Shown piece after piece: positions 8,135 to 27,315 of a stretch of 64,000 nucleotides of DNA. Source of the stretch: Candidatus Omnitrophota bacterium (GTDB lineage Bacteria; Omnitrophota; Gorgyraeia; Zapsychrales; Fredricksoniimonadaceae); contig JAGWKL010000007.1 of NCBI GenBank assembly GCA_028865345.1, forward strand, positions 6,089 to 70,088, written 5' to 3'. The translations under genes were made by a program, and so were the position numbers. The first letter of the stretch is position 1. Each line of letters begins with the position of its first letter. The notes beneath the pieces were generated by a model, which saw only the letters and a list, made by a program, of their open reading frames with translations, had not been told where the DNA came from and did no database searches.

Positions 8135-8149
8135 AGGCCTTGGTCCTTA

Positions 8150-8506: not shown

Positions 8507-8515
8507 TCAGTCCTT

Positions 8516-8935
8516 TCATGTCGCACAACCGGTCCCGTCACTGCAACACGGCGGCGGATTGGAACTGCTGCATACCGGAGGTAATTGGTGGCTGATGGAG
8601 GATATGTTGCTTGTGTCATTCACGGAACTGATATAGACCGCTCCCAGTTCCCCTGCGCTGCCGTTTGTTATTCCTTGATGATTGTCTGAATTCCGTTGCA
8701 CATCCGAGAAGGTCTGCATGTAATACGGTTCATATCCCCAGGAAACCCCGTTGGAAGCGGCCTGGCAATTGACATCGCAGGCATTGGCCGCCATCTCGAT
8801 CGCAAAGTTCCTGGCATCATGGATCCGCGCCTCAAAGGCCCTCCTCACCAGCACGGTCATAGCTGTCAGGGCCGCAACCACTATGAAGAAAACCATGACA
8901 TGCTCTGCCAAAATCGCTTGACCTTTGTCATTCAT
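8516..8935 (-). CDS. flp: Flp-type pilin paralog 6 (~139 aa) with Cys-rich C-terminus
   Basis: Track ORF 8516..8962 begins at a TTG. Better start is ATG at 8935 (MNDKG|QAILAEH) with AAGGTGAGG RBS. Motif has H instead of Y. C-terminus PPVCSSSNPPPCCSDGTGCAT. Shares ARIHDA and YEPYYMQ motifs with the pilin at 9613..9981. Confidence 0.55.
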   Translation of the reverse strand: MNDKGQAILAEHVMVFFIVVAALTAMTVLVRRAFEARIHDARNFAIEMAANACDVNCQAASNGVSWGYEPYYMQTFSDVQRNSDNHQGITNGSAGELGAVYISSVNDTSNISSISHQLPPVCSSSNPPPCCSDGTGCAT

Positions 8936-8968
8936 GCCCCGCCTCACCTTCTCCAAAGACAAACGGCC

Positions 8969-9166
8969 TCACATCCCATTCGCCGCATTTTCCTGCAAGT
9001 AGGTGGCTGCGTTGAGCATCCCTTGGGTCGTCTGGTTGAACACGCTGTTCAAGCTGCTTTGAAAAGAACCTGTCCCCTTGCCTGTCGTGAACAGAACGAC
9101 CACCACGATCACGGCCGTGACCAGCAGGATGTATTCCACCAGGCTCTGACCTTTACGTGCGCGCAT
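8969..9166 (-). CDS. flp: Flp-type pilin paralog 5 (65 aa)
   Basis: MRARKG|QSLVEYILLVTAVIVVVVLF, canonical Flp motif; AGAGGA RBS. Confidence 0.7.
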   Translation of the reverse strand: MRARKGQSLVEYILLVTAVIVVVVLFTTGKGTGSFQSSLNSVFNQTTQGMLNAATYLQENAANGM

Positions 9167-9197
9167 GCGTTTGTCCTCTATTGACGGCCTATATCAA

Positions 9198-9223
9198 CGA
9201 GGGGGGAAGAAAATCCCCCCCTC
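9198..9223 (-). promoter_or_regulatory. Intra-operon GC hairpin between flp4 and flp5
   Basis: Perfect inverted repeat CGAGGGGGG-AAGAAAAT-CCCCCCTCG (9-bp G/C stem) in the 70-nt gap between the pilin genes at 9236..9574 and 8969..9166. Confidence 0.4.
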
Positions 9224-9235
9224 GTTTGGACTCTG

Positions 9236-9574
9236 TTAGGCGGCGGTGTTCCCTCCCCAGAATTCCTGCTGGGTGTTAAGGATGACCGAGTTCTCCGTCG
9301 TGTTGGTCGATTCACCCGACCCCAAGATGGAAGTCGAGGAATTTCCTGCGTTGAACACTTCTTCTGTATCGCTGGAAGTGTTGACGATCTTGATCACGTT
9401 GGTATTGCCGTCAGAATACTGGTCGCCGATATCGTCGGCGGCGCTCTTCAGGCGCCCCTGCACGCCGCGTTTGATATAGACCTGAAGGGTCAGCAAAGCG
9501 CCGACCACAACGACGATCATTACCGAGTATTCCAGGAAACTTTGACCGCGTTTTTGGTTAAGATATTGCAACAT
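9236..9574 (-). CDS. flp: Flp-type pilin paralog 4 (112 aa)
   Basis: MLQYLNQKRG|QSFLEYSVMIVVVVGALL; GGAGG RBS upstream. Confidence 0.7.
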   Translation of the reverse strand: MLQYLNQKRGQSFLEYSVMIVVVVGALLTLQVYIKRGVQGRLKSAADDIGDQYSDGNTNVIKIVNTSSDTEEVFNAGNSSTSILGSGESTNTTENSVILNTQQEFWGGNTAA

Positions 9575-9612
9575 AGGATTCCTCCTTAAAGATATATCGT
9601 TGAAGTCTTAGG

Positions 9613-9981
9613 TTATTCAGACTGTTGATTCCCGCTGTCATAATTACTGTACGTTTGATTCTCAGACCCGGTCCTGATCCTGTTGTTGGCGGAATCCTGT
9701 GCGACCAAGTCGTGCCCTAAGCGTTTAGCACTAACGCTGTTGCTGGATACGTCATAATTGCTCTGCATGTAATATGGCTCATACTGCGTGTCATTGCCCA
9801 GACCGATATCCGAGTTGCCGGTGGCATTGGCCATATACGTTGCTGCATCGTGGATACGGGCTTGTATGGCGCGCTGGGCATAGGTCTGCATGGCAATGAT
9901 GCCTGCGACCACCAGGGCGATCAAAAGCGCGTATTCCGCGAAGTGTTGTCCTTTTTTATTCTTAAGGAAATTTCTCAACAT
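9613..9981 (-). CDS. flp: Flp-type pilin paralog 3 (122 aa)
   Basis: MLRNFLKNKKG|QHFAEYALLIALVVAGII; GGAGG RBS. Shares ARIHDA..YEPYYMQ motifs with paralog 6. Confidence 0.7.
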   Translation of the reverse strand: MLRNFLKNKKGQHFAEYALLIALVVAGIIAMQTYAQRAIQARIHDAATYMANATGNSDIGLGNDTQYEPYYMQSNYDVSSNSVSAKRLGHDLVAQDSANNRIRTGSENQTYSNYDSGNQQSE

Positions 9982-10027
9982 AAGTTCCTCCTATATTAGT
10001 TCGTAGAGATTTTGTTTAAGCTCCTCG

Positions 10028-10276
10028 CTATTGAGTCGGATTGACACTATAGCCAGAGGGAGCGCCACTGTCGGTACTGGTGTATGCGCCATGTGAACCG
10101 GCATACTGTGACGTTTCACTGTTCATTTCCGTCACCGCCGCGTTGTAGGTGCTGTTGAGCGTGTTCTGGAACGGACCGTTTTTGCTGGTCACAAAGGCCA
10201 CAATAACGATAAGGACCGCGGTCACAACCAGGATGTATTCCACCGTGATTTGACCTCTTTTGTTCTTTATATGCAT
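10028..10276 (-). CDS. flp: Flp-type pilin paralog 2 (~82 aa)
   Basis: Track ORF 10028..10288 starts MEGIM, but GGAGGGGATTATG shows those codons are the RBS. True start is MHIKNKRG|QITVEY at 10276. Confidence 0.7.
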   Translation of the reverse strand: MHIKNKRGQITVEYILVVTAVLIVIVAFVTSKNGPFQNTLNSTYNAAVTEMNSETSQYAGSHGAYTSTDSGAPSGYSVNPTQ

Positions 10277-10348
10277 AATCCCCTCCAAAATTCCCGTACT
10301 GCATCCTCCACGTAAATTAAACGCCGTGTAAAGGAACAGGGAATATAG

Positions 10349-10504
10349 TTAATTCAACGAATCCTCAGTAATCATCTTCTGTTGGGCTTGCACGGAACGG
10401 AACACGTAGGTGCTCAACAGCGCCAAGGCTGCTGAGATCAAGGCCACGACGATCGCGTATTCGATCAAGTTTTGTGCTTTGATACCGTTTAATTTTCGGA
10501 TCAT
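10349..10504 (-). CDS. flp: Flp-type pilin paralog 1 (51 aa), not in ORF track
   Basis: Manually translated: MIRKLNGIKA|QNLIEYAIVVALISAALALLSTYVFRSVQAQQKMITEDSLN. 156 nt ATG..TAA, below the 60-aa cutoff of the track. Canonical-size Flp with Ala at -1. First gene of the pilin array. Confidence 0.6.
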   Translation of the reverse strand: MIRKLNGIKAQNLIEYAIVVALISAALALLSTYVFRSVQAQQKMITEDSLN

Positions 10505-10733: not shown

Positions 10734-11855
10734 CTAATCTTTTAAAATTTCGACCTTAACCAGCCTATTTTGGTCATCATGCAGATACATCGCATTTAAT
10801 TTCTCTGCGGCTTCATTGAGCATGGTAATATTCTCATAACTATTTGTCGTTAATATGTTTATTATATTAATTTCACTGTTGACCTTGTCGAATCCTTTCA
10901 ACTTTAATATATTATCCATAACATCATCGTTTACATTATGTTGTGTAAAAAAAATGTCTTTTGCTCTCTCTGAAACATTCTTTTTATAGCTCTCCACAAA
11001 TACAATATCTTTTAACATAAAAACTCTTTTACACTCCACAATTTCATCGAAATATGCTATAACATTGTCTTTGTAATCCACTATCAAAATTTTTGTAATT
11101 TTGAGCCCGGCTTGAGCATCCATGCAAGATTTAAAAAGCATTTCATCCGAAACTCTATGAACTACCAGCGGCCGGATATTATTAATAAGCCCGTCCACTG
11201 CTTCCATGATGCAACGTTCAATGGGGAGCGGCAGATCAATAAAGACCTCCTTGTTGTTTTCCAAAACAACCTTGATCCCTTTACAGTATGTCAGGCAATA
11301 TTCCCAATCCGTTCCCTTGACGTTCTCTTCTGAGAAAATTCCTAAATCCCAAAGTGCCGCCCTTAAAAAAACCCTTCCGGCCCCGTCGTATTCCGCAGAA
11401 ATCTCAAAACTTTCGGGCTTGATTTGCCGTTCTTCTGTAATCGTCGGGGCTTTTTCTTCTTCCGTCGATCCGGGGCCGGAGGACGGAGGCTCTTTATGAA
11501 CGTTTAGATCCTGGCCGCCCGCCTCCATTTCCTGAGAAACGCCTTTTGCCGAATCCGGCAGTACGCTGACTTCAGGAATAATTGTTTCCGGCAGCAATTT
11601 GACTTGGGAAAGGCTGGCCTGAATCTGCCTCTTCTTCTCTTGAGGTATTTCAAACTTATTTTTTGGCTTACGGCCGCGAGGCGTCATGATGCCCGCCTCT
11701 TTGAGCACATCATGGACCGACGATTTGGAAAGTTTAAGTCCGAACTTTTGAGAGGCTGATTCAGCTAATTGGCGGCAGGAAGCAAGAGGGTTGGCTTGTC
11801 GCTGGTTTATGATGAATCCGACAACCTCTTCCTTTAACTTATAGGTAACACCCAT
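10734..11855 (-). CDS. Hypothetical protein with N-terminal HTH-like domain (~373 aa), AT-rich
   Basis: Track ORF 10734..11951. The first 32 codons are AT-junk overlapping the XRE gene, so start taken at MGVTYKLKEEVVGFIINQRQANPLASCRQLAE (HTH-like, ~70 aa). Then an acidic low-complexity linker and an unrecognised ~230-aa C-terminal domain. GC content far below surrounding genes. Confidence 0.4.
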   Translation of the reverse strand: MGVTYKLKEEVVGFIINQRQANPLASCRQLAESASQKFGLKLSKSSVHDVLKEAGIMTPRGRKPKNKFEIPQEKKRQIQASLSQVKLLPETIIPEVSVLPDSAKGVSQEMEAGGQDLNVHKEPPSSGPGSTEEEKAPTITEERQIKPESFEISAEYDGAGRVFLRAALWDLGIFSEENVKGTDWEYCLTYCKGIKVVLENNKEVFIDLPLPIERCIMEAVDGLINNIRPLVVHRVSDEMLFKSCMDAQAGLKITKILIVDYKDNVIAYFDEIVECKRVFMLKDIVFVESYKKNVSERAKDIFFTQHNVNDDVMDNILKLKGFDKVNSEINIINILTTNSYENITMLNEAAEKLNAMYLHDDQNRLVKVEILKD

Positions 11856-11938
11856 AAAATTCCGTTCATAATAATGTCCAGTCTGGACATTATTATAACA
11901 AAAAAATATGGAGAAACAATTTAAAAAAAGGAATGATT

Positions 11939-12217
11939 TTATATTTCCCACATAACAATATTTTCAGAACTACTTTTTGCTTCTTTGTTCTGTTTGTGGT
12001 TTGATTTGGATCGCAGAAGATTTACAGGAGTGGTTTTGAGGGCCTTGGCGAGTTTTTCAATATTCAGCAGGGTAATATTTATTTCCGCCCGCTCTATCAT
12101 TCCGATGTAATTCCGATGAAGGTCCGCAAGTTCGGCAAGTTTTTCCTGAGAAATCCCTTGCCTGCGCCGCTCCATCCGTATCTTCTTGCCGAAGCTTATA
12201 AGTAATCTTTTATTCAT
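11939..12217 (-). CDS. XRE-family helix-turn-helix transcriptional regulator (92 aa)
   Basis: RRRQGISQEKLAELADLHRNYIGMIERAEINITLLNIEKLAKAL is a classic Cro/C1-type HTH. AT-rich, co-located with the 373-aa HTH gene. Confidence 0.6.
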   Translation of the reverse strand: MNKRLLISFGKKIRMERRRQGISQEKLAELADLHRNYIGMIERAEINITLLNIEKLAKALKTTPVNLLRSKSNHKQNKEAKSSSENIVMWEI

Positions 12218-12525
12218 TGATTTCCCTAAATTTGCGTGTAGTATATATATTTACTTTCATTATTTCTACACAGCATCGTGTGGACTATTATATTAGTCAC
12301 AACATTAAGATAAGATGAAAAACAGGGTGAGGAGCAAAAGCGGAGAAAAGCGTGACTCTTCCCAAATCACGGCGTGAAATATTTAAGATCGACCAAATGA
12401 AAATGGTCTGGAAAATCGGGGACAACGAAGTCCGCTGCGACGGCGCGGTCCACTATGTCTGGGTCCCCTCTGCGGACCATGTGCAGCAAATCGGCCCCTG
12501 TGACTGCAAAAGCAAGTCCAAAAAA

Positions 12526-12861
12526 TCATAGCCGGACCTGGTCACCGATCCGTGTTTGAGAAGCAATGATGGTCCCCGCCGGCAATTCGATGGCGTAGGA
12601 TGCCCGGAAGAATACCGGCGACAGGCGGAAAGGTTTGATCCCCTCGCAAAGCCCCACCACCTTGTCCTTCCGGTCGCAAAAGATCACATCAATAGGAAAT
12701 TTCATAAAAAACATATGGATGGATTCGCAATGGGGAATGACCAGGGCGTGATTCAGGGGGAGTTGGGTCCTTCCAAGCAATCCCTTCGAACGCTGCCAGA
12801 AATTCCGGGCGGTTTCGACGGAGGAGGCAATAACGGTGTCGCGGGTTGCGTTACAGATCAT
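12526..12861 (-). CDS. DUF192 (COG1430) family protein (111 aa)
   Basis: Sequence family resemblance only. 4-nt overlap with the upstream CpaE-CpaF gene suggests translational coupling. Confidence 0.45.
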   Translation of the reverse strand: MICNATRDTVIASSVETARNFWQRSKGLLGRTQLPLNHALVIPHCESIHMFFMKFPIDVIFCDRKDKVVGLCEGIKPFRLSPVFFRASYAIELPAGTIIASQTRIGDQVRL

Positions 12862-15023
12862 ACGCCGGCGGGGGCCTCAAAAATGGTCTTGCTGATCGAA
12901 ATCCCGCGGGTGGTCAGGTCTTCAAAACATTTGGGCACATAGCCGGTGGCCGCGTATTCCCCCATGTTCCGGCCTTCTGCGTCGACGCCTTTCTGGACGA
13001 ACACAAAGATGTCCTTGATCTCCGGAAGACCTTCCACCATCTTTCCGGTCAGCTCGGAGATCTGGGTCACCTTGCGCGACCCGTCGGAAAAACGGTTGAT
13101 CTGCACAATGATGTGGATCGCTGAGGCGGCCATCTCATAAATAGCGCGCAGCGGCAGTTCGATGCCCGACAAAAGGACCATGGACGACATACGCGACAGG
13201 GTGTCCCTGGTCGTATTGGCATGCAGGGTCGTCAGGGACCCGTCGTGACCGGTATTCATGGCCTGCAGCATGTCCAGCACTTCGGGCCCGCGGCACTCGC
13301 CGATGATGATCCTGTCCGGACGCATACGCAGCGTATTGACGAAAAGCTCCCTGATCGTCACCTTGCCCCGGCCTTCGATGTTGGCCGGACGGCTTTCCAG
13401 CCTCGCCCAATGTGTTTTGACCAGGCGCAATTCCGCTGCGTCTTCGATGGTGATAATGCGTTCATTGTCCGGGATGAAATGGGAAATGATGTTCAGAAGC
13501 GTCGTTTTACCCGCGCCCGTCCCGCCGGAGACGACGATGTTCCTGCGGCCGATAACGCAGGCGTTCAGAAAATCCGCCATGGGCTGCGAAAGGCTTTTGA
13601 ACCGCGTCAGCAAGTCCTCAATGGTATAGCGGTCCTGTGAAAATTTACGCACGGTGATCATGGGCCCGTTCAGGGACAACGGCGGGATGATCGCGTTGAT
13701 ACGGGACCCGTCGGACAGGCGCGCGTCGACCATCGGGGTCGATTCGTCCACACGACGGCCTAAAGGAGCTATGATACGGTCGATCGTGGCGCGGACCTGA
13801 TCGTTGGAAATAAACCGCTTGTTGGTCAAATAAATCTTGCCGTTTTTTTCTATGAAGACCTCGTCTTTATTATTGACCATGATGTCCGTGACGCTTTCGT
13901 CGGCCAGAAAGTCTTCCAGAGGGCCAAGCCCCAAAGCTTCGTCGACGATTTCCTTGACTATTTTAGCGCGTTCCTCATGGGTGGAAAGGAAGGTCCCCGA
14001 GGCCTCCGCCAAAAGCTCGGTGACGACTTTTTCGGCGGCCCTGCGCAGGTTGGCGACTTGGGCAGGATCATTCAAGACCTCCTGCGACATTTTCTGCAGG
14101 TTCATGCGCTCAACCAAACCGTTATGCACGGCGCGCTTGACTTTAATGACCTCGTCTTCCTCTTTTTTGAAATCGACCCCGGCATCGACGCCCGCAGGCG
14201 TGATGCCGAATTTCTCCCAAAAGGCGTTGCTCTTTTGGCCCGATTCATCCCCGGTGGCACGCACCCTGAGGACATCGCTGGCCTGCACATACAGCTTATC
14301 ATCGTTGAGCGCATGGGCGATCTCAAAAAAACATTCCGACACCTTTGCCTTCGGGCTGTCCATGACACAGGGAACGCCCCGGTTGAGGGCGAGGCCCACC
14401 GTCTTGCCGTCAGAAGGTATCAAAGAGAAAACGTCGCAGGCCAGGGCTTTCTTGACCTCCTGCCAGGCGACACCGCCGCGGCTTTCGGCGCGGTTTAAAA
14501 TCAGGTTTACCATCTTCAACGGATAATGCAAGCCCTGGAGGATGTCCAGGCAGGTCTTCACCTGGTAAACCGCCAGGACATCGGGAGTGCCGACCAAAAA
14601 AATGAGGTTGGAAGAATCCAGGACGCTGATGAAGCTTTCACTGAAGGTGCTTCCTCCGTCGACAATAATGCAGTCGAATTGAGGGGCCGCCTTCTTGAAA
14701 AACAGACGCAGATTATCGGAGGTGATGTGGCCGATCTGCTGGGGGGTTCTTACCGCAGGCAGGAAACACAGGCCGCTCGGGTGGGGGATGCATTTGCCCT
14801 TCAGCGTCTCAGGCGATCTCTCCAGGTCCGCCAAAATATCGACCAGGCAAAGCGACGGTTGCAAATTCAGCATGCGCGACATGTCCTGGGAAGCCTGAAG
14901 ATTCAGGTCAACGATCAGTGTCTTTTTGCCCTTAAGGCTAAGCGCACAGGCTATATTGACGGCAATAAAGGTCTTTCCAACCCCTCCTTTGTTGCCGAAT
15001 ATGGTAATGATTCTGGCCGCCAT
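12858..15023 (-). CDS. cpaF: CpaE/TadZ-like ParA ATPase fused to CpaF/TadA secretion ATPase (721 aa)
   Basis: N-terminal ~260 aa: IITIFGNKGGVGKTFIAVNIACALS is the MinD/ParA deviant Walker A typical of CpaE/TadZ. C-terminal ~460 aa: GGTGAGKTTLLN Walker A, GECRG, TGHDGSLTTLHAN His-box are T2SS-E/CpaF/TadA hallmarks. No receiver-like domain. Confidence 0.75.
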   Translation of the reverse strand: MAARIITIFGNKGGVGKTFIAVNIACALSLKGKKTLIVDLNLQASQDMSRMLNLQPSLCLVDILADLERSPETLKGKCIPHPSGLCFLPAVRTPQQIGHITSDNLRLFFKKAAPQFDCIIVDGGSTFSESFISVLDSSNLIFLVGTPDVLAVYQVKTCLDILQGLHYPLKMVNLILNRAESRGGVAWQEVKKALACDVFSLIPSDGKTVGLALNRGVPCVMDSPKAKVSECFFEIAHALNDDKLYVQASDVLRVRATGDESGQKSNAFWEKFGITPAGVDAGVDFKKEEDEVIKVKRAVHNGLVERMNLQKMSQEVLNDPAQVANLRRAAEKVVTELLAEASGTFLSTHEERAKIVKEIVDEALGLGPLEDFLADESVTDIMVNNKDEVFIEKNGKIYLTNKRFISNDQVRATIDRIIAPLGRRVDESTPMVDARLSDGSRINAIIPPLSLNGPMITVRKFSQDRYTIEDLLTRFKSLSQPMADFLNACVIGRRNIVVSGGTGAGKTTLLNIISHFIPDNERIITIEDAAELRLVKTHWARLESRPANIEGRGKVTIRELFVNTLRMRPDRIIIGECRGPEVLDMLQAMNTGHDGSLTTLHANTTRDTLSRMSSMVLLSGIELPLRAIYEMAASAIHIIVQINRFSDGSRKVTQISELTGKMVEGLPEIKDIFVFVQKGVDAEGRNMGEYAATGYVPKCFEDLTTRGISISKTIFEAPAGV

Positions 15024-15140
15024 AATGAATTTTTATTGTACCATATTTTTTGATTTTGTCGCAGATAAAAAAGAGGTCGCTTTGCCTTCCCCCTAACTCG
15101 GGAGGTAGCGTGTCCCTTTGATGAAATTCTAATGGCAAAA

Positions 15141-15300
15141 TTCTTTCTCGGCGTCGGCTCGCAGGGGGGCAAATTTCTTTTGAACATCAGCTTGCACAGG
15201 GGTAAATTCTTTTTGGACATCAGCCTGCAAAGGGGCGAATTCTTTCTCGGCGTCGGCCCTCAGGGGAATAAATTCTTTCTCAACATCTGCCGCCTGCAGT
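15141..15300. repeat. 33-bp tandem repeat (~4.8 copies) forming 11-aa repeats in ORFs on both strands
   Basis: Units TTCTTTCTCGGCGTCGGC..CAGGGG..AAA alternate between A/B subtypes (A-B-B-A-B). Minus frame gives ADxEKEFxPLx repeats (track ORF 15129..15611). Plus frame gives GKFFLxISLxR repeats (track ORF 15132..15476, ATG start, GC3 ~74% versus ~45% on the minus frame). Confidence 0.6.
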
Positions 15301-15429
15301 TCACGGCATTGGGGCCCTTTGGCCTTATCACAGGGGCTTTGTGCGGAAGCGCCCGAAGAAATCTGTGCCCCGCAAGGGCAAGGGACGCAAAGGATCAACC
15401 AGAAAATTACTGTAGTCAGGTACAGGTAA

Positions 15430-17235
15430 TTACGAAGCAAAGCCCTTCTCCGCCGGAGATTGACCGTCAGGGTTAAAAACAATAGGAACCGTAAATTCAA
15501 GTTCTCGCTGGTCCATCCCCGGGCTAAAGGCGGCAAAAGGAGCGGCTGATTTAGCGGCCTGCATGGCGTCCTGATCCAGGACATTGCTTCCCGAAGACTG
15601 GGCCACGTCAATAGAATCCAGGGAGCCGTCTTTAAGGATATGCAGCTTCAATTTGACCGTGCCTCCCAGCTCGGCGCCGCCCACCGGCCGGGGATAAATG
15701 AGGGTCCTTGAAATCTTTTCCTGGACCATGCGTGCATACGCTGTCGCGGCCGGGAGCCCTTTCAAATTCTCAACGGGTAGGGGTGCCGGCGCTGAATAGG
15801 CCGCGGTGTATTGCGGCGCCAATGGAAAAGAAGGAGAATACGTCTCCGGATTTTCCGAGGGAGCGGTAGGAGCCGGCTTGGCCGGCCAATCGGAAACGAT
15901 GGGCGCGTGTTCATACCTCGAAACTATTTCATTCCAGGAACTGCGCTCCTCGGACGTCGGCATCACCAGTTCTTTTTGCGCGTATTTCGTTTGCGTCAGC
16001 ACCGTCGGCGTCAAAATAATGACCATTTCCGTATTGGCATCCGCGGGCTCGCTTTTGTTTCTGAAAAGCCCCCCTAAAAGCGGAATTTTAGATAAAAACG
16101 GCACATCGGTCTCATTCACGCTGTCTTCATATTTGATCAGCCCCGCCAGGGCAATGGTCTGCTTGTTGTCCATCAGCAGGTCCGTCGAAGCTGTCCGGGT
16201 GACAAAGGCCACGTTGCCCCCATTGCTGGATATGGGAGTGGCTGAATCCACGTCCCGGATGTCCACGTTTAACTGCACATCTATTTTTCCGTCTTGAATG
16301 GTCGGAGTGACCGACAGGTTGACGCCGTATTGGGCATAGGTCGTGTTATTGGTCAGGGTGCTGCCAGTGGTGCTCACTGTTGTGGATTGGATGGGGATCT
16401 CGCCGCCTACCAGGAAACTGGCAGGCTTGCCGCTTTCCACCACCAACCGCGGCTTGGAAATCAGCCTGGCCTTGCCTTCCTTGACCAAGGCATTCACCGT
16501 GGCTTCCAGCGACGTAGTGCGCATGAAGTGCCCTATCTTGAACAAATCCTTGAACTTGTCTCCCGTGGGAAGGGTTTCTCCATAGTTAAGGTTCACCTGC
16601 CCGCTGTTGCTTGTCCCGGTTGAGCCCGTTGTGCCCGAAGAAGAAGTCCCCCACGATATCCCCAATTCTCTTTCCAGGGTCACGTTGATCTCCACGATCT
16701 GCATGTCCACCTGGATCAATTCGTTGTTCTTTTCTTTCTCGACCAGATTCAACAAATTATCGCTATACGGCGTCAGGACGTCCGCCATCCGGTTTTTGTT
16801 GTCTTCAGACAAGGAGCCTGTGAGCACCACCTTGCCTATATCGAGATTTATATCTTCGGAAACCCCTTTGACGCCGGCTTCCTTCAGGAGCTCCTGCACA
16901 AGGGCCTTGAGGGCGTTGAGGTCCTGGGCGGCCACGCGAACCTTGACGCTGTGTTTGCCGCCCGCATCCCAGAAAAACAGGACCGTTGAGCCGGCTTTCT
17001 TGGCTATCAGGGAAACTTTATCGTTCTGAACGTCTGAAATGTCCGCCACCGAGGGGTCGGTCACCGAGACCCGGGTCAACCCGCTGGCAGGGACCGACTG
17101 GATGTCGCCCACCACCATGTCAATAACGTCTGCCGACTGCATATCATCGTCGGCAGATAACGGCGGCATATATGCCACTGATACCGCAAGGCCAAACGCG
17201 ACGATAAAAATTTTCCGTAAAAGGTTGGATTTCAT
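15430..17235 (-). CDS. cpaC: CpaC/RcpA-type secretin with C-terminal Pro-rich linker and TonB_C-like domain (601 aa)
   Basis: N-terminal pilus-formation domain. Secretin C-terminus (DVPFLSKIPLLGGLFRNK..TEMVIILTPTVL) ends near residue 415. Then PAKPAPTAPSENPETYSPSFPLAPQ linker and YARMVQEKISRTLIYPRPVGGAELGGTVKLKLHILKDGSLDSIDVAQSSGSNVLDQDAMQAAKSAAPFAAFSP resembling a TonB C-terminal domain. Confidence 0.7.
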   Translation of the reverse strand: MKSNLLRKIFIVAFGLAVSVAYMPPLSADDDMQSADVIDMVVGDIQSVPASGLTRVSVTDPSVADISDVQNDKVSLIAKKAGSTVLFFWDAGGKHSVKVRVAAQDLNALKALVQELLKEAGVKGVSEDINLDIGKVVLTGSLSEDNKNRMADVLTPYSDNLLNLVEKEKNNELIQVDMQIVEINVTLERELGISWGTSSSGTTGSTGTSNSGQVNLNYGETLPTGDKFKDLFKIGHFMRTTSLEATVNALVKEGKARLISKPRLVVESGKPASFLVGGEIPIQSTTVSTTGSTLTNNTTYAQYGVNLSVTPTIQDGKIDVQLNVDIRDVDSATPISSNGGNVAFVTRTASTDLLMDNKQTIALAGLIKYEDSVNETDVPFLSKIPLLGGLFRNKSEPADANTEMVIILTPTVLTQTKYAQKELVMPTSEERSSWNEIVSRYEHAPIVSDWPAKPAPTAPSENPETYSPSFPLAPQYTAAYSAPAPLPVENLKGLPAATAYARMVQEKISRTLIYPRPVGGAELGGTVKLKLHILKDGSLDSIDVAQSSGSNVLDQDAMQAAKSAAPFAAFSPGMDQRELEFTVPIVFNPDGQSPAEKGFAS

Positions 17236-17240
17236 TGAAA

Positions 17241-18089
17241 TTAAAGTTCCCTGCCGCCTCTAAAAATCTGGATCATGGGCTTGCTTTCTTCCGGCTTGGC
17301 TGTGGGCACTTCATCCGGGTTCTCAAGATCTAGCCCCTGGTTTTTCAGGACATAGTCCGCCAGGGTCTTCCATGTGTCTGCTTTGACCATTCGATGTTCC
17401 ATATCATCAGGTGAACGCAACGCCAGGTCCAGCTTGCCGTTTTTATCCGCAAATTCCAAAAGTCCTGCTTCCTGAGGACTCACCGCAAAAGTGATTTTCA
17501 GGGAATTGGCCGCCTGCTGCTTATCATAGTCGCCCAAGTCTTCCTCATTGGTATTAACGGCCAGGACCTGCAGGTCCTGGAAAACCATCGCCGTCACGGT
17601 TTGCTTATTGGCATATTGCGACGGGACGCTCATCTCGCCGATCACATCCACAAAATCCCCCGGATTGATCATGCCCCCCACGGCGGCGAGCGAATCGATC
17701 TTCACCGTCACGGCGCGCATGCCCACCGGCGTCCTTAAGGCCAGCGACGGCTTGTGGGCTTCTTTTTTGACACTCACCTGCGTCTGCGGCCGCATCTTAG
17801 ATATTTGCTGCTCGGAAATCTTCAGCGCGGCGATTTGTGTCTTTAATTGCTGTTCCTCCTGGCTTTTTTCCCGTTGCATTTCCTGCGCCAGTTGGGCCAT
17901 TTGCTGCTGGTCTTGCTGCTGGATCGCGGAGACCATTTCCTTTTCTTTGGAGGCGTACTGTTCAGCCAGGGCCTGGGTCTTGTTGTTAATCGCAGTTTGG
18001 ACGTAATTGCTGGCCAAAAACACCGCCACCAGCCCTAAGGCCAAAGCGCCGAGGATAATGAAAAGTTGCTTTTTGTTTTCGAAAGGCAA
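17241..18089 (-). CDS. cpaB: Flp pilus assembly protein CpaB/RcpC (282 aa)
   Basis: N-terminal TM (LFIILGALALGLVAVFLA), Gln-rich coiled-coil, SAF-like segment GMRAVTVKIDSLAAVGGMINPGDFVDVIG. Confidence 0.65.
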   Translation of the reverse strand: MPFENKKQLFIILGALALGLVAVFLASNYVQTAINNKTQALAEQYASKEKEMVSAIQQQDQQQMAQLAQEMQREKSQEEQQLKTQIAALKISEQQISKMRPQTQVSVKKEAHKPSLALRTPVGMRAVTVKIDSLAAVGGMINPGDFVDVIGEMSVPSQYANKQTVTAMVFQDLQVLAVNTNEEDLGDYDKQQAANSLKITFAVSPQEAGLLEFADKNGKLDLALRSPDDMEHRMVKADTWKTLADYVLKNQGLDLENPDEVPTAKPEESKPMIQIFRGGREL

Positions 18090-18116
18090 TTTTCCCTCTC
18101 TTTGTTCGGGTCTTAG

Positions 18117-19139
18117 TTACCGGCCCGTCTGGCTTGGCTGACCGACAACCTGGTCAATAAGCGTTTTGTTGTACTCGGGTTTATACTTTTCAGCCAGTTC
18201 GTTAAGGTGCTTTAACATCACCTCTTGTTGTTTTTGCTGGGTCAAGAAATAAATGATCTGGTCTTTATAATCGGTAAAAGGTTTCAGGACGCCTCCCGTC
18301 TTGGAATCGACCTTAACGATGTAATAGCCTTGCGGCCCCTTGAAAACGCCGCTGACATCCCCGGGGCCCAAATTGGCAATGGCTGTTTGCATGGCTTCAA
18401 AGGGCGCTTCTCCCGTGACGAACGGCTTTATTTTTCCCCCGACAGCCGCGTCGGACGCCTTGGATTGGGACCGGGCAAGCTGCGCAAAATCGCCGCCCTG
18501 CAGCACTTGAACCAAAATAGTTTTGGCCGTGGCTTCATCCGGGGCCACGATCTCACTGACATTCCATGTAACGGGCGTGGTCAAGTCAGATTTGTGGGCA
18601 TCATAATATGCCCTGGCATCGGATTCGGTGGCGGCCACATTCCTGGTCAGGCGGCTGACCACTTCCTGGACCATCAGCGTCCTGCGGAAATCCCTGACGG
18701 AATCCTTGATGGACTGGCTGTCACCGGCCCCGGAATCCTGCGCTTCCCGGACCAAAAGTTCCTGACGTACAAGCTGGTCCAAAACATAACTTCTGACCTT
18801 GGCATCGCTTTCCTTAAAACTTTGTTTCATGCCGGCAAGCTGCTGTTTTAAAAGGTCCAAGCGGTCATTGAATTCCTGCTGGGTCAATGTCCAATCGCCG
18901 ATGCGCACCAAAGCGTCGCCGGGTAAAGGTTCTTGGGCAACGGGCGTGCTCTTGGCAACAACTACAGGGGAAACCGGAGTGACGGGAGCGGCGGGAACGA
19001 CAGGAGCCTGTTGTTGGGAAGCTTCCTGCTTTTTACTGCCCAGCCCCAACAAATTCTGTATCTGGTCGCAACCGGTCAAAAAGACCAGCCCGGCTATCAA
19101 ACACAGAGGCCCGTACATTTTAATTGCGGGTCTTTTCAT
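18117..19139 (-). CDS. PpiC/parvulin-type peptidyl-prolyl isomerase lipoprotein (SurA/PrsA-like, 340 aa)
   Basis: Lipobox LVFLTGC. Parvulin-like GPQGYYIVKVDSK and an N-terminal chaperone-like region. First gene of the minus-strand block. Confidence 0.55.
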   Translation of the reverse strand: MKRPAIKMYGPLCLIAGLVFLTGCDQIQNLLGLGSKKQEASQQQAPVVPAAPVTPVSPVVVAKSTPVAQEPLPGDALVRIGDWTLTQQEFNDRLDLLKQQLAGMKQSFKESDAKVRSYVLDQLVRQELLVREAQDSGAGDSQSIKDSVRDFRRTLMVQEVVSRLTRNVAATESDARAYYDAHKSDLTTPVTWNVSEIVAPDEATAKTILVQVLQGGDFAQLARSQSKASDAAVGGKIKPFVTGEAPFEAMQTAIANLGPGDVSGVFKGPQGYYIVKVDSKTGGVLKPFTDYKDQIIYFLTQQKQQEVMLKHLNELAEKYKPEYNKTLIDQVVGQPSQTGR

Positions 19140-19262
19140 TCATTCCTCCTCAAATGTCCTTCAAGTATACCTGCTTTTTTTAAAAAAGCAAGGTCCCGGG
19201 CCTGATTCGCCCGTCGGATTTAAGATTTTTTTGTTGTAACCCATTCTCTCTCAATAAATAAA

Positions 19263-19291
19263 ATCATATATGAAGATTTTATGAGGGTCAA
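19263..19291 (-). promoter_or_regulatory. Candidate sigma70-like promoter for the Tad-like operon
   Basis: On the minus strand TTGACC -17 nt- TATGAT. It is ~115 nt upstream of the PPIase start, in a 227-nt AT-rich gap. Confidence 0.3.
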
Positions 19292-19366
19292 CGAAAAATC
19301 GAAATATTTCGCCTTCCTGGATCCGGAGGCAGATCCACCGGTCCCTCGGCAGGCGGACTATCATCT

Positions 19367-20371
19367 TTACGATAGAATAAGCTCAGATACGGCCCTTTTT
19401 TCCGCCAAAAGCTCCTCCAGGGTTGCTTTGATCTTAGCAAGGGCAAATTCATTATGTTGAATGCCCTGAACTACGGAACATTGGCCGCCGTCTGAACGCA
19501 AAGGAAGCCCGAACATGAGTCCGGGTTCGACGCCATAGCTGCCGTCCGAAGGGACCGCGGCTGAAAAAAACTCTCCTGCCGGTGTCGGGGTGATGATGGA
19601 ACGCACGGTGTCGATGACCGCATTGGCCGCAGATGCCGCAGATGAAAGGCCGCGGGCCTTGATGACGGCGGCCCCCCGTTTCTGCACGCCTTCAATGAAG
19701 GAGCCCTTAAGCCATGCTTCGTCCTTGATTACGTCGACGGACGGACGGCCGTCGACGGTCGCATGATAAAAGTCCGGGTACTGGGTGGCCGAATGGTTGC
19801 CCCAAATGGCCACGTTCCTTACCCGCCCGACGGGAACCCCGGCTTTTTGGGCCAGCTGGGCTGCCGCCCGGTGGGCGTCGAGCATAGTCATGGCAAAAAA
19901 ATTCTTTGCAGGGATGTTCTTACAAACGCTCTTGGCTATATAGGCGTTGGTATTGCAGGGATTGCCGACGACCAGGACTTTGGCGGTGGGCTTGGCGCTT
20001 TCAGACAACGCCTTGCCCTGCACCGTAAAAACGCCCCCGTTGATTTTCAGCAGATCGCCGCGTTCCATCCCCTCTTTGCGCGGCACGCTGCCGACAAGCA
20101 GGGCCCAATCGACATCTTTAAAAGCGGCCTTCGCATCCGCGGACACGGAGACTGAACGCAACAAAGGAAACGCGCAATCCTCCAGTTCCATGATGACGCC
20201 GTTGAGCGCCGGCAAAGCTTTTTCCAGTTCCAATAGTTTCAAGTCGATTTCCGTATCACTGCCGAACATTTCTCCGGCGGCAATACGAAATAAAAGCGCA
20301 TAACCGATCTGCCCCGCCGCTCCTGTCACGGCAACTTTAATGCGTTTAGACATATTCACCCCTTTTTCCAT
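19367..20371 (-). CDS. mdh: Malate dehydrogenase (NAD-dependent)
   Basis: [22 protein letters not shown] Rossmann motif, IWGNHS, MDH-type active-site region. True start may be MSKRIK at 20353. Confidence 0.8.
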
Positions 20372-20403
20372 TTGGCCGGATTGACAGGCACTCGAAAGAC
20401 GGT

Positions 20404-21198
20404 TTATTTTATAATTCCCGGCAAAGACTGCCTTGCTTTTTTGACTTCCCGAAGATCAATCTGCCCAAAAACAATTTCCTGGCCCTTCGGCGAGCCGCAG
20501 GCCGTGACCTCGCCCCACGGCGAGACGATCATGCTGTGGCCATGCGCCTCTATGCCGCGGCCGTCTGTACCGACCTGGGCGGGCGCCAGCACATAGGCCA
20601 AATTTTCAATGGCCCGGGCGCGCAGCAGGGTTTCCCAGTGGGCCTGGCCGGTTTTTTTGGTAAAACACGACGGCACTGTTAAAACCTCGACCCCTCGGCG
20701 GGCATACCGTTGATAGAGACCGGGAAAGCGTACATCGTAACAGATCGAGAGCCCGGCCCTGAATTCCCCTATTTTGACCGTCGTGATTTTGTTCCCCGGA
20801 AGGAAACTGCCCGCCTCCCGGATTATTTTATCACCGAGACGGGCATCGAATAAATGGATTTTGCGGTATTTGGCGGAAATGCTCCCGCCGGAGTCAATAA
20901 CGACTGAAGTGTTGTAGGCGTATCCGGCGCCTGCTTTCTCTATAATAGAACCCAACAAAAGACAGGCTTTATATTTTTGAGCTAAAGGAAAGAAGGCCCT
21001 GACCGAAGGGCCGGGCACCGGCTCGGCGGCTTCTTGAAGGATCTGTTTGTTATCGGCCCCGGCGCGGAAATTAAAAACTTCCGGCAAAAGAACAAACCGG
21101 GCGCCTTGGGCAAGCGCCTCTTGAACCATGCCTGTGGCGCGTTTAAGATTGTCCGCTTTGTCTTGGGCCGAGCAAAACTGTATGAGAGCTACCTTCAA
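20404..21198 (-). CDS. Carbon-nitrogen hydrolase family protein
   Basis: MKVALIQF..EVF, catalytic-triad-like E/K/C context (CYD) of the nitrilase superfamily. Confidence 0.6.
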
Positions 21199-21232
21199 GA
21201 TTCCCTGTTTTTTGGTTATCGCGAGGTTTATT

Positions 21233-21904
21233 TTAATGCGTCGCAGGAGCCTGCGCCCCGGCTTTTAGGGACGCTTTCAGCATTTCACCATATTCTTTAT
21301 AGCAACTTGTATAGAAAGACCGCTTCTTGAGCCCTGCACGCCAGGCCGTTAATTTAGGATAAGCGCTGAGATCAATTCGGGCCATCTCCGCAGGCTCCAG
21401 CAGGGCCATGAGGACAATGTCGGCCAGCGATATCTCATCGGCGACAATATATTCGTGCCGGGCCAATTGGTTCTCAATGACAGGAAAATATTGCTTCAAA
21501 AATTCCAGACCGTCGGTGATGGCTTTGTCATTGACGGGGAGGCCCCTCAAAGGCGCAAACAGGCGGTTAAAAACCACCGGGATGAAATTGGCGCCGATGT
21601 GCAGGGTGGCATAATCGATCCATTGGTCGACGAGAGCGCGCGCCTTTGTGTCTTTGGGATAAAGGGATGAGCCGTGTTTGTCGCAAAGGTACTTGCAGAT
21701 GGCATTGCTTTCAAATAAATAAAAGCCGTCATCGTCCATGGCGGGGACCTTGCCTACGGGATTGATCTTCAAAAACCATTCACTTTTTTGCTCGCGTTCC
21801 CGCAAATTGAGGTGCCGCCACGTATAATCCAATCCCAAAAAGCTTGCCGTTAAACGGGCCTTGATGGCCGGGCCTGACAGGTCTGAGCCGTAGATGGTGA
21901 GCAT
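21233..21904 (-). CDS. Glutathione S-transferase family protein
   Basis: N-terminal thioredoxin-like GST fold (SGPAIKARL..PVGKVPAM..ESNAI) plus C-terminal helical domain. Confidence 0.6.
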   Translation of the reverse strand: MLTIYGSDLSGPAIKARLTASFLGLDYTWRHLNLREREQKSEWFLKINPVGKVPAMDDDGFYLFESNAICKYLCDKHGSSLYPKDTKARALVDQWIDYATLHIGANFIPVVFNRLFAPLRGLPVNDKAITDGLEFLKQYFPVIENQLARHEYIVADEISLADIVLMALLEPAEMARIDLSAYPKLTAWRAGLKKRSFYTSCYKEYGEMLKASLKAGAQAPATH

Positions 21905-21975
21905 ATTCCCTCCTTAGATAGCGGCGCCGCGAAAGCTGCCGGCGGGCAGGCAGACACCGCCTTCCTTGAATTGAG

Positions 21976-22053
21976 TGGCGACCCCAACGGGATTTGAACC
22001 CGTGCTGCGAGCTTGAAAAGCTCGTGTCCTGACCAGGCTAGACGATGGGGTCG
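21976..22053 (-). tRNA. tRNA-Glu: tRNA-Glu (anticodon TTC), CCA encoded
   Basis: Cloverleaf folded by hand: acceptor CGACCCC/GGGGTCG, anticodon loop TTTTCAA, T-loop TTCAAAT. Confidence 0.75.
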
Positions 22054-22121
22054 ATAAAGTTGCCCGACTGGAGTGGTTATTATATTGCCCCGGCTTTTTT
22101 CGTCAAGTGAAAACGAGGGCC

Positions 22122-24578
22122 TCATTCCTCTTCATGGACGACCACATGGGCAATGGAAGAAACCTTGTCCCCCGCATCCAGGGATATCAGGCGCACCCCC
22201 ACCGCGCTGCGGCCGGTCTCGCGGATCTCGGAGGGGGACGATCGCACGACCATTCCCTGCTTTGTAACGGCCATGATCTCGTCGGCATCGGAAACCGCCA
22301 TCACGCCCACAACCGGGCCGTTCTTGTCCGTGAGCTTGACGTTGATGATCCCCTTGCCTGCGCGGGACTGGGTGCGGTACTCCGCAAAGTCCGAACGCTT
22401 GGCATAGCCCAGTTCACAGACAGTCAATAGTTTGGCCCCGGTCTTGTCGATGTCCGGCACAAAGACCAGCATGCCGACGACAAAATCGCCCTTTTCCAGG
22501 CTGATGCCGCGAACGCCCTTGGCCGCCCGGCCCATGTCGCGCAATTGCTTCTCGGGGAACCGCAAAGACCCCCCTTCCCGCGTGGCCAGAAAAACATCTT
22601 CCTTGCCGTTGCTTAACCCGACCCCGATGAGCTCATCGCCTTTTTCCAGGCCGATCCCGACGATGCCGCCTTTGCGCGGATTATTGTACGCCGAGATCTT
22701 GGTTTTCTTGACCAGGCCCTGTCTGGTGGCAAACACCAAAAACTGGTCTTCCCTGAATTCCTTGACCGCCACAATGGCGCTGATCTTCTCCTCCGGCTTG
22801 AAGGAAAGCAGGTTTACGATGGCCTTGCCGCGGGCCGCGCGGGACGCCACCGGAATTTCATAAACTTTGAGCCAGCGCACGGTGCCGGCATTGGAAAAGA
22901 TCAGTAAGAAATCCTTGGAAGAAGCCACGAACATCCGTTCCACAAAATCCTCTTCCGAGGTGGTCATGGCCGTGACCCCTTTGCCTCCGCGCTTCTGGGA
23001 ACGGTAGGCATCGACGGACAGGCGCTTGACATACCCTTTGTTGCTGATGGTGATGGCCATGTCTTCGTCGGCGATCATGTCTTCTATTTCGATGTCCTCC
23101 GCCTTGGCCGCGATCTCCGTGCGCCTCTCGTCGGCATACTTCTTCTTGACCTCGCCTAATTCTTCCTTGATGATGCCGTCCACCCGTTTTTCGGAAGCCA
23201 AAATGGCACGGTAATTGTCAATGTCTTTCAAAAGCTGCTGGTATTCCGCCTCTATCTTGTCGCGCTCCAGGGCGGCCAGGCGCTGCAATTGCATTTCCAA
23301 AATGGCCTGGGCCTGGGGACCGGAGAGATCGAACTTCCTGACCAGGGCTTCCTTGGCGTCGGCGGTCGTCTTGGAGGCGCGGATGGTCTTGATGATCTCA
23401 TCTAGATGCTTGAAGGCGATCCTCAAGCCCTCCAGGATATGCGCCCGACGCAGGGCCTTGTCCAGGTCGAACTGCGTCCGCCGGCGGATAACGGCGCGGC
23501 GATGGGAAATATAGTGGCCCATCAGCTGTTTTAAATTCAATACATGCGGGGACTTGTTGACCAAGGCCAGGTTGATGATGCCGAAAGTGACCTCCATCTG
23601 GGTGTGCTTAAAAAGATAGTTCAGGACGATGTTGGCGTCCGCGTCCCGCCGCAGTTCTATGACGACCCGGATGCCGTCCTTGTCGCTTTCGTCGCGGATG
23701 TCCGTAATGCCGTCGATCTGCTTGTTCTGCACCAAGTCCGCCATGGTCGAGATCAAATTGGCTTTGTTGACCTGGTACGGGACCTCGGTAATGATGATGG
23801 CCTCCCTGTTGCCTTTTTGCTGTTCGATGCTGGCGCGGGCGCGCAGTGTCACCTTGCCGCGGCCGGTATTATAGGCATCGATAAACCCTTCCCTGCCGCA
23901 GATGATCCCTCCCGTGGGAAAATCAGGGCCCTTGACGAATTTTGTCAGCTCTTTGACCGAAGCTTCGGGATTGTCCAGCAAATGCACGATGGCCTCCACA
24001 ACTTCCCCCAGGTTGTGGGGAGCCATATTGGTGGCCATGCCCACGGCGATGCCCGAAGAGCCATTGACCAGCAAATTGGGGATCAAGCCAGGGAGGATGT
24101 CCGGTTCTTCCAGGGAGCCGTCAAAATTGGGACTGAAGTCCACGGTCTGTTTTTCAATGTCATTGAGCATCTCCTCGGCGACGCTGTCCATGCGCGCCTC
24201 GGTGTAGCGCATGGCCGCGGCCGCGTCCCCGTCAATGGACCCGAAATTGCCCTGCCCGTCGATCAAGGGATAGCGCAAAGAGAAATCCTGGACCATGCGC
24301 ACCATGGTGTCGTAAACCGCCGTGTCCCCGTGCGGATGGTATTTGCCCAGCACTTCTCCGACGATACGGGCGCTTTTCTTATAAGGCTTGTTGTGCTCAA
24401 GGCTCAACTCCTTCATCGCATAAAGGATGCGCCGGTGCACGGGCTTGAGACCGTCGCGCACGTCAGGAAGGGCGCGCCCGACGATAACGGACATGGAATA
24501 CGAGAGGTAGGAATTCTTCATCTCCTCTTCTATATAAACCGGGAGGACTCTTTCTTTTTTGTTCAAATCGCGTGACAT
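22122..24578 (-). CDS. gyrA: DNA gyrase subunit A
   Basis: AMRYTEARM active-site region, QRRGGKG, C-terminal beta-pinwheel repeats; 818 aa. Confidence 0.95.
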
Positions 24579-24593
24579 GAAGCGGCCTTTCTA

Positions 24594-27044
<2,451 letters not shown>

Positions 27045-27311: not shown

Positions 27312-27315
27312 GGGT

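Follow-up and report, generated by a model that had tools for sequence, protein, structure and literature searches.

Secretins of Tad (Flp) pilus systems typically carry a T2SS-T3SS_pil_N domain, and in secretins of solved structure the C-terminal S-domain leaves the barrel on its outer face, in the periplasm. In type IVa pilus systems, anchoring and localisation of the secretin involve the N-terminal AMIN domains of PilQ, which target peptidoglycan and vary in copy number, and the LysM protein TsaP. The S-domain of Pseudomonas aeruginosa RcpA is a random coil of 17 residues, which binds the TPR lipoprotein TadD through the final four of these, at the periphery of the barrel (PMC10499894). In Caulobacter, the gene just downstream of cpaC encodes CpaD, an OmpA-like protein that is predicted to bind peptidoglycan and surrounds the secretin as spokes; CpaD is essential there, whereas the TadD orthologue is not required (PMC13170226). 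When the secretin ExeD of Aeromonas is assembled, its periplasmic domains are contacted by the TonB-like ExeB together with the peptidoglycan-binding ExeA (PMC4098917). Here, a different arrangement is described in a 64,000-nucleotide stretch of a Candidatus Omnitrophota genome (GCA_028865345.1, contig JAGWKL010000007.1; the window), where a single open reading frame (ORF) at 15430-17235 on the minus strand encodes a Tad secretin that continues beyond its barrel into a proline-rich linker and a TonB_C domain. This architecture had been proposed in an initial annotation made from the sequence alone, and it is borne out by Pfam and NCBIfam scores above their cutoffs, by AlphaFold2 (AF2) models, by Foldseek searches and by comparative data.

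The ORF is one continuous frame of 601 residues, and the DNA across the junction between the secretin and its C-terminal region contains no stop codon or frame change; all features of this gene and of the Tad locus given below lie on the minus strand. The protein begins with a signal peptide (residues 1-28, 17152-17235) with a hydrophobic segment at residues 5-23 and a predicted cleavage after LSA (MKSNLLRKIFIVAFGLAVSVAYMPPLSA|DDD), following a pattern common to family members (MK..FLKK...LSA|DE). The NCBI gene model of the identical protein begins at M23 and has 579 residues, so that the signal peptide is lost. A T2SS-T3SS_pil_N beta-sandwich follows (residues 35-101, 16933-17133; PF13629, 43.6 bits with a cutoff of 23) with an AF2 predicted local distance difference test score (pLDDT) above 90. 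The next domain (residues 105-168, 16732-16923) has the AF2 fold of an N1/N3-like alpha-beta ring-building domain, with helices at 106-120 and 144-160, strands at 125-130, 135-142 and 161-167 and a pLDDT of about 90, and it aligns to the N-domains of secretins in the PDB. The secretin beta-barrel core (residues 173-413, 15997-16719) is supported by Pfam PF00263, PDB sequence matches and Foldseek; in particular, the Pfam match covers profile positions 1-168 of 169 at residues 249-413, with 133.5 bits and a cutoff of 27.5. As had been annotated for a position near residue 415, the conserved secretin C-terminal motif (VPFLSKIPLLGGLFRNK...TEMVIILTPTVL) ends at about residue 413-416. With a secretin profile above cutoff, a signal peptide, and periplasmic N-domains ahead of the barrel, the protein is a member of the secretin family; the full-length NCBIfam models of GspD, PilQ, MshL and SctC all score far under their cutoffs. 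It is a Tad/Flp secretin of the CpaC/RcpA type, according to its pil_N domain and its gene context of cpaB, tadZ-tadA and Flp-type pilins.

Beyond the barrel, the protein first forms a short helical segment at the position of the S-domain (residues 420-447, 15895-15978; 'VMPT..E....YEHEPL'), where AF2 places a helix at 428-440 with a pLDDT of about 85. A disordered, Pro/Ala-rich linker comes next (residues 448-495, 15751-15894; pLDDT below 50 at 449-492). The composition of this spacer had been recognised correctly in the initial annotation, but its length had been put at about 60 residues; the distance from the barrel to the TonB_C domain is about 80 residues (414-495), with 14 Pro (17%) and 10 Ala (12%) among 82. 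The TonB_C domain itself (residues 496-588, 15472-15750) consists of an N-terminal helix, a YP motif, strands beta1 and beta2, an SSG motif, a helix and strand beta3. Its Pfam match (PF03544, residues 514-588) has 49.6 bits with a cutoff of 24.6 (E 5e-13), which places both the Secretin and the TonB_C profile above cutoff in the same protein. In the same region, Pfam TonB_2 is also above its cutoff (27.3 bits vs 22), as is NCBIfam TIGR01352 (tonB_Cterm; 59.9 bits vs 27.1), while the full-length TolA model TIGR02794 is under its cutoff (23.4 bits vs 59.45). The protein closes with a tail of low pLDDT ('...QSPAEKGFAS'; residues 589-601 and stop codon, 15430-15471).

A full-length AF2 monomer model, built on 57 homologues, is confident in the N-domains and in TonB_C, and has lower, mixed confidence in the barrel (10-residue block means of 57-89). 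Over the TonB_C domain the pLDDT is 88-97, with 88-95 at residues 520-590 of this model; a second model was made of residues 494-601 alone, which has an overall pLDDT of 84.7, a predicted template modelling score (pTM) of 0.74 and the topology helix, beta1, beta2, helix, beta3. Strand beta3 is the last strand in both models, and no pairing of a linker or tail strand with the sheet is predicted in either. When the isolated model is compared to the PDB by Foldseek, the top 26 matches are all TonB C-terminal domains (CTDs), TolA-III, HasB or FusB; the best match is the Helicobacter pylori TonB CTD, with which the extra N-terminal helix is held in common, and TolA-III fits less well. The nearest solved relative according to a PDB sequence search is also the H. 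pylori TonB CTD. For the secretin part, the best PDB sequence matches are a secretin from Acidithiobacillus caldus (8jvb/9wfd) at 6e-35 and, from Pseudomonas, the Tad secretin RcpA (8odn) at 4e-22, and Foldseek of the full-length model retrieves secretin cryo-EM structures (9wfd/8jvb, GspD, InvG, PilQ and RcpA).

The fusion is widespread in relatives. Among GTDB species-representative genomes, 454 stretches encode relatives of the protein, and the locus counts in this text cover the best 80 of them (29-72% identity), all of which match the query through residue ~587-601. In 77 of the 80 loci, secretin and TonB_C are encoded in a single intact ORF; the other three are two frameshift-riddled assemblies and one locus with a run of Ns. 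Further, the best 120 matches in a collection of 5.8 billion proteins (39-100% identity) have the pil_N, Secretin and TonB_C architecture, except for contig-end fragments that lack pil_N and two frameshifted or truncated entries that lack TonB_C. A second query that is 29% identical to the window protein (L080) yielded 1,810 matches, where the top 120 all have Secretin and TonB_C, and all but three have pil_N. The organism names of these relatives are Omnitrophota or Omnitrophica, save for placeholder or probably mislabelled metagenome-assembled genomes (labelled Planctomycetales, Elusimicrobia, Elulimicrobium or Deltaproteobacteria), whose loci have unchanged synteny. The secretin-TonB_C fusion is spread across the Omnitrophota phylum, and its restriction to that phylum rests on these source labels.

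These data also bear on the possibility that a frameshift, a misassembly or a chimeric gene call has joined a secretin to a separate tonB-like gene. A few database entries do contain TonB_C as a separate short gene (P0121-P0126) or a secretin without TonB_C (P0080, P0101), as this explanation would expect. However, the entry P0123 comes from a nanopore contig on which cpaB, the secretin gene and the DUF192 gene are all split, and because all three are broken its stand-alone TonB_C gene is a product of error; the other short entries come from contigs of 0.7-3.5 kb, and a search of a word-indexed database with the TonB_C segment by itself gave only six fragments. The C-terminus of P0080 is a frameshifted reading of the TonB_C region, with the same peptide as a related locus (L033), and P0101 is frameshifted or truncated. 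With a continuous ORF in the window and intact loci in 77 of 80 species, the two-gene explanation is refuted by the comparative data and its remaining chance is negligible; the initial annotation's view of a single gene holds.

The TonB_C domain is conserved nearly as well as the secretin domains. Mean identity to the window protein is 60% in the barrel, 58% in pil_N, 53% in TonB_C and 44% in the N1-like domain, compared to 34% in the post-barrel helix, 30% in the tail and 21% in the linker. Thirteen TonB_C positions are invariant across 57 homologues. Pairwise distances of barrel and TonB_C are correlated (r=0.74, Mantel p ~0.001) about as strongly as those of barrel and N-domains (r=0.79); TonB_C has diverged in step with the barrel, which fits one old fusion that was vertically inherited, and its conservation shows the TonB_C part to be under purifying selection. 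In contrast to these domains, the spacer from the barrel end to the TonB_C helix varies from 33 to 234 residues (median 64, 72 orthologues), and its composition may be Pro/Ala-rich, strongly acidic, or Lys/Ala/Glu-rich, where the last kind looks, by eye, like TolA domain II. The post-barrel helix is kept in the nearer clade and not in distant clades. The tails likewise differ by clade, with '...AEKVIASY' conserved in close relatives, 'QTVVA(A/S)Y' or 'LDSFLKNVAKHK' elsewhere, and no tail in some members; as a universal functional motif the tail was rejected, since it is clade-specific and degenerate in the window protein.

The TonB_C module also occurs in other protein contexts. A HMMER scan with the TonB_C profile of 1.84 billion cluster representatives gave 90 matches at E<=1e-30, and the best 150 matches were sorted with local hidden Markov models and spot-checked with Pfam. 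They include 63 secretins with a single TonB_C and 13 with two tandem copies (13 of 76 secretin representatives; for example P0249, P0252, P0253, P0263 and P0307), and some two-copy members of the secretin family are as long as 1,045-1,091 residues. Another 36 proteins have 3-7 tandem TonB_C copies and no secretin, and many proteins of this kind lack any other Pfam domain (for example P0245, P0257, P0266 and P0274); they rank high because the bit scores of the copies add up. In one of the 36 (P0281, GCA_053938405.1; locus L081, 6001-8391), three N-terminal TonB_C domains are joined to a TolC-like OEP outer-membrane channel. Outer-membrane channels may more widely use TonB_C as a repeated module.

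In NCBI, proteins of this kind are named 'TonB family protein'. The window protein has two features of a TonB, namely the TonB_C domain and a Pro-rich spacer, and lacks two others, a transmembrane anchor and, among the scanned ORFs, exbB/exbD neighbours. Apart from the cleavable signal peptide, after which come 400 residues of secretin, it contains no hydrophobic segment, and hence no N-terminal transmembrane anchor. The ORFs scanned across the 64-kb window yielded no exbB, exbD, tolQ or tolR gene and no gene for a TonB-dependent receptor, nor was any found in the conserved locus of related genomes; a genuine TonB system nearby was dismissed as a candidate on the strength of the scanned window ORFs. 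Because it has no ExbB/ExbD-coupling transmembrane helix, has no ExbBD genes among the scanned window ORFs, and is anchored by an outer-membrane secretin barrel, the protein is not a TonB. The NCBI name is therefore misleading, and the JGI name, 'pilus assembly protein CpaC', is closer.

The same observations make it very improbable that TonB_C is the receiving or transmitting end of a motor of the Exb/Tol/Agl type, driven by the proton-motive force, such that gating or pilus dynamics would use this force as well as the ATPase. The domain does belong to the TonB/TolA class, which is used in every known transducer from proton-motive force to the outer membrane, and some orthologues have long Lys/Ala/Glu-rich linkers that look, by eye, like TolA domain II. 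Yet the signal peptide is cleavable and a transmembrane helix of the TonB type is lacking, so that direct contact with ExbB/ExbD is not possible; the exbB, exbD, tolQ and tolR genes are missing from the scanned ORFs and the conserved locus alike, and the orientation is reversed, since the protein is anchored in the outer membrane.

The proposed role of the module is instead structural. In Omnitrophota, the Tad (Flp) pilus machine has this protein as its outer-membrane secretin; the place behind the barrel, taken in other Tad secretins by just a short pilotin-binding coil, is filled here by a flexible linker of variable length and then TonB_C. The C-terminus is expected to be periplasmic by analogy to the solved secretin structures. 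Since a secretin ring has 13-14 subunits, an assembled pore would have 13-14 TonB_C domains hanging in the periplasm on tethers of ~5-10 nm or more; this stoichiometry is inferred from RcpA (C13/C14) and from 8jvb/9wfd (28 chains over two entries, read as ~14 each). With the open edge strand and the sheet of their fold, these TonB_C domains would tie the pore either to the wall layer of the cell or to a periplasmic face of the pilus machine. The secretin would thereby be positioned and braced against the pull of pilus extension and retraction, which in other bacteria is the job of separate proteins.

That TonB_C is such a cis-encoded periplasmic anchor or brace, to the wall layer or to a periplasmic face of the machine, is the favoured proposal, to which about an even chance is assigned. 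Wall-binding modules, such as the AMIN domains of PilQ, are often present in multiple copies, and the variable tether length, the occasional tandem copies and the presence of the same module on another family of outer-membrane channels would be typical of anchoring modules. An anchor to peptidoglycan or to a periplasmic partner, as the initial annotation had suggested, is therefore plausible, in view of the variable linker, the relatives with tandem copies and the analogy to CpaD, AMIN domains and ExeAB. Several points weigh against the proposal. A conserved TonB-box-like strand was not found in the linkers of CpaB (71 orthologues) or of the upstream peptidyl-prolyl isomerase (PPIase) lipoprotein (62 orthologues). 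The module is slightly acidic according to a count of its own sequence, and is not an obvious peptidoglycan binder; TonB CTDs are reported in older work to bind peptidoglycan. The AF2 full-length model (pTM 0.39) has no confident docking of TonB_C onto the remaining protein. Finally, tandem copies and variable linkers are compatible with the binding of a protein partner too.

Coupling to such a partner by beta-augmentation is a tentative alternative, with a modest chance of being correct. Here, TonB_C would capture a 'box' strand of a specific protein, as the CTDs of TonB and TolA do, either linking the pore to the inner-membrane platform or closing the domains into a collar. The domain keeps the canonical TonB_C features (the YP motif, SSG and a beta3 strand with invariant P584 and I585), no linker or tail strand is predicted to pair with the sheet, in which beta3 is the last strand, and Ton-box-like tails (EKVIASY, QTVVAAY) are conserved within clades. 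There are precedents as well: GltG and GltJ of the Myxococcus gliding machinery have TonB_C-like motifs and a partner with a TonB-box-like segment (PMC9389320), ExeB was hypothesised to bind a strand of the secretin N0 domain in TonB-like fashion (PMC4098917), and CpaI packs on the CpaC N-domain by donor-strand-like complementation (PMC13170226). Against this, the CpaB and PPIase linkers carry no conserved box-like motif, the first pil_N strand is ordinary for its family, the tails are absent in many members besides being clade-specific and degenerate ('AEKGFAS') in the window protein, and linkers of such widely differing length speak against a partner held at one set distance. As candidates for the box strand, the linkers of CpaB and PPIase were rejected after alignment of 71 and 62 orthologues showed these regions to be unconserved, and the N-terminal 'DVIDMVVG' of the secretin was rejected because the AF2 model, confident in this part, builds it in as strand one of the folded pil_N domain (pLDDT above 90 from residues 41-50 onward).

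A more far-reaching version, which is distinctly unlikely, would make the 13-14 tethered TonB_C domains a mechanical coupling device in place of a passive wall anchor. They would either bind box-like strands of a component linked to the inner membrane, perhaps with a 5:2 ion motor as its drive, or daisy-chain through their own C-terminal tails into a periplasmic collar. If true, pore gating or retraction force would operate by TonB-style strand capture from the outer membrane inwards, as an inverted TonB system in predatory or episymbiotic nanobacteria.

The initial annotation had also offered that TonB_C substitutes for a missing pilotin or TadD. In this explanation, the module would replace TadD in guiding the monomer to the outer membrane, or would nucleate the ring, and would have no later role. 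It sits exactly at the position of the TadD-binding tip of RcpA, the ORF scan of the locus and of the 64-kb window turned up no TPR-type tadD, and the TonB-like ExeB is required only for the assembly of ExeD (PMC4098917). However, tadB, tadC and a prepilin peptidase gene are likewise missing from the scanned ORFs of the locus and the window, which indicates that Tad genes lie elsewhere, so the absence of tadD says little. Pilotins are lipoproteins on the Lol pathway, and TonB_C has no lipid anchor that would give it this route. As an assembly factor, the conserved PPIase chaperone lipoprotein encoded just ahead of cpaB is a more likely choice, and some Tad secretins, as in Caulobacter, are independent of a TadD orthologue (PMC13170226). 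The suggestion is thus weakened and considered unlikely. Seymour et al. reported TadBC in many Omnitrophota genomes, and tadB and tadC are probably encoded elsewhere in this genome.

The Tad locus on the minus strand is arranged in the order PPIase, cpaB, secretin, a 405-bp gap, tadZ-tadA, DUF192, a low-GC insertion, pilins and three large ORFs. Its gene order is kept in relatives (mdh, PPIase, cpaB, secretin-TonB_C, tadZ-tadA, DUF192, pilins), with Tad synteny in 71-79 of the 80 loci. The first gene of the putative operon encodes the SurA/PrsA-like PPIase lipoprotein (18117-19139; Pfam Rotamase_2, Rotamase and SurA_N; lipobox LTGC), is preceded by a promoter-like site (19291-19263), and is present in 70 of the 80 loci directly upstream of cpaB. 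In 38 of its 46 lipobox-bearing orthologues, an Asp follows the lipobox Cys at position +2, which is the signal for inner-membrane retention according to the E. coli rule. This lipoprotein could be a dedicated chaperone of the secretin or pilins, or its position could be a mere conserved order beside mdh. The cpaB/rcpC gene (17241-18089; TIGR03177, 113.3 bits vs a cutoff of 71; Pfam RcpC) ends 5 bp upstream of the secretin gene, and the two adjoin in 78 of 80 related loci.

Downstream of the gap, a gene of 721 codons (12858-15023) encodes a fusion of TadZ (CpaE) and TadA (CpaF), composed of a ParA/MinD-like ATPase (Pfam CbiA/AAA_31/ParA, residues 4-240) and a Tad secretion ATPase (T2SSE, residues 364-640); its TIGR03819 score of 320 bits is under the cutoff of 373. 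In well-studied Tad systems, tadZ and tadA are separate genes; here, they form a single ORF in 69 of 71 related loci, and the N-terminal receiver-like domain that is usual in TadZ seems absent from the fusion. The next gene encodes a DUF192 protein (12526-12861; PF02643, 72.3 bits), found in 59 of the 80 loci. Eight small Flp/TadE-like pilin ORFs (7817-10504) have class-III signal peptides and N-termini of the G/xxxxEY type, and two of them have weak precomputed Pfam matches to Class_IIIsignal. They are followed by three large ORFs (684, 913 and 986 residues; 24-7886), the first two with pseudopilin-like N-terminal hydrophobic segments, for which Big_7 is the only Pfam match and whose homologues lie downstream in 36 and 19 related loci. 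The first two may be pilus-associated proteins, and these ORFs may serve a predatory or episymbiotic lifestyle as pilus tip proteins or adhesins.

Two segments interrupt this order. In the gap between the secretin gene and tadZ-tadA, NCBI calls an ORF of 103 residues (15129-15440, minus strand) that overlaps the secretin stop by 11 nt, and whose C-terminal half consists of 11-residue repeats (ADxxKEFxPLx) that correspond to a 33-bp tandem repeat at 15166-15245 (2.4 copies, 82% match). A weak hairpin of terminator type lies in the gap at 15380-15366, as does, at 15062-15035, a site that resembles a promoter for tadZ-tadA. A conserved partner gene in this gap was ruled out, since elsewhere the gap has 40-150 bp or holds unrelated insertions, such as an AAA ATPase (L012) or an ORF resembling an outer-membrane protein (L005). 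The low-GC (~42%) insertion between DUF192 and the pilins (10734-12217, minus strand) encodes an XRE-type helix-turn-helix protein of 92 residues and a 405-residue protein with a weak transposase-type helix-turn-helix; it is probably a mobile or foreign segment in the Tad locus.

The locus lies at most ~10 kb from an apparent chromosomal origin region (27316-34150) with dnaN, yidC, parA and parB, and with gyrB and gyrA on the other side. This region includes a 448-residue ORF (28577-29923) that is a dnaA candidate by its position, and a low-GC stretch at 30-34 kb. Seymour et al. placed the Tad locus of V. archaeovorus at nt 12382-29832 of its genome, and the placement near the origin appears conserved for this reason.

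Databases contain many proteins with this architecture, which are called 'TonB family protein' or 'pilus assembly protein CpaC'. In the literature searched, a secretin-TonB_C protein is nowhere described, in agreement with the initial annotation, which knew of no characterised fusion of this kind. The main genomic study of Omnitrophota discusses Tad systems and an RcpA phylogeny, with TonB unmentioned (PMC10066038), and a 2026 preprint on Omnitrophota describes genes of 'TonB-domain content' that flank giant-protein loci with secretion and pilus genes, and does not call them secretins; they are probably the secretin-TonB_C gene. As far as this literature shows, the fusion is present in databases, yet unrecognised and uncharacterised, and it is a secretin with an accessory module, probably for anchoring or assembly, not a new kind of system.

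The means by which a secretin is positioned and braced against load differ among the studied systems, and include pilotins, AMIN domains, TsaP, CpaD and GspAB. A TonB-type domain fused to the pore itself would be another solution, used phylum-wide by largely ultra-small bacteria that are thought to be predators or parasites dependent on Tad pili, and would extend the use of the TonB_C fold beyond inner-membrane-anchored energy transducers. Further, recognition of the architecture corrects a systematic misannotation of secretins named 'TonB family protein' in NCBI, and the fusion could serve as a marker of Omnitrophota Tad loci. As a soluble domain of ~100 residues, TonB_C offers an experimental handle for a ligand search.

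Several known systems are close to this one. In RcpA-TadD (8odn; PMC10499894), a Tad secretin likewise combines a pil_N-like N-domain and a barrel, its gene lies beside rcpC/cpaB and tadZ/tadA, and an accessory function resides at the C-terminus, where it comes out at the edge of the barrel; unlike in RcpA, the Omnitrophota C-terminus runs ~190 residues further, as a linker and a folded TonB_C domain, and no TadD is encoded among the scanned window ORFs. The Caulobacter CpaC-CpaD pair shares the placement of a module encoded directly 3′ of the secretin barrel sequence, which in the case of CpaD is wall-anchoring and surrounds the secretin. CpaD, however, is a separate lipoprotein with an OmpA-like fold, whereas the Omnitrophota module is covalently fused and unlipidated, with a TonB_C fold and a putative wall binding. 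PilQ with its AMIN domains, and TsaP, are similar in that a secretin has an added module in variable copy number, but the fold is another one and lies at the opposite end of the protein, and wall binding by AMIN and LysM is experimentally supported while that of TonB_C is putative. In ExeA-ExeB (GspA-GspB), a TonB-like, proline-rich periplasmic protein touches the periplasmic domains of a secretin, in a complex that has a link to peptidoglycan; ExeB is a separate protein, anchored in the inner membrane and acting in trans on a type II secretion secretin, whereas here the TonB-type domain is within the secretin polypeptide and its anchor is in the outer membrane. Finally, TonB, TolA, HasB and GltG-GltJ share the fold and signature motifs of the CTD and an extended low-complexity spacer, and differ from the Omnitrophota protein in that the latter has no N-terminal transmembrane helix, has no ExbB/ExbD among the scanned window ORFs, and is anchored by an outer-membrane beta-barrel multimer.

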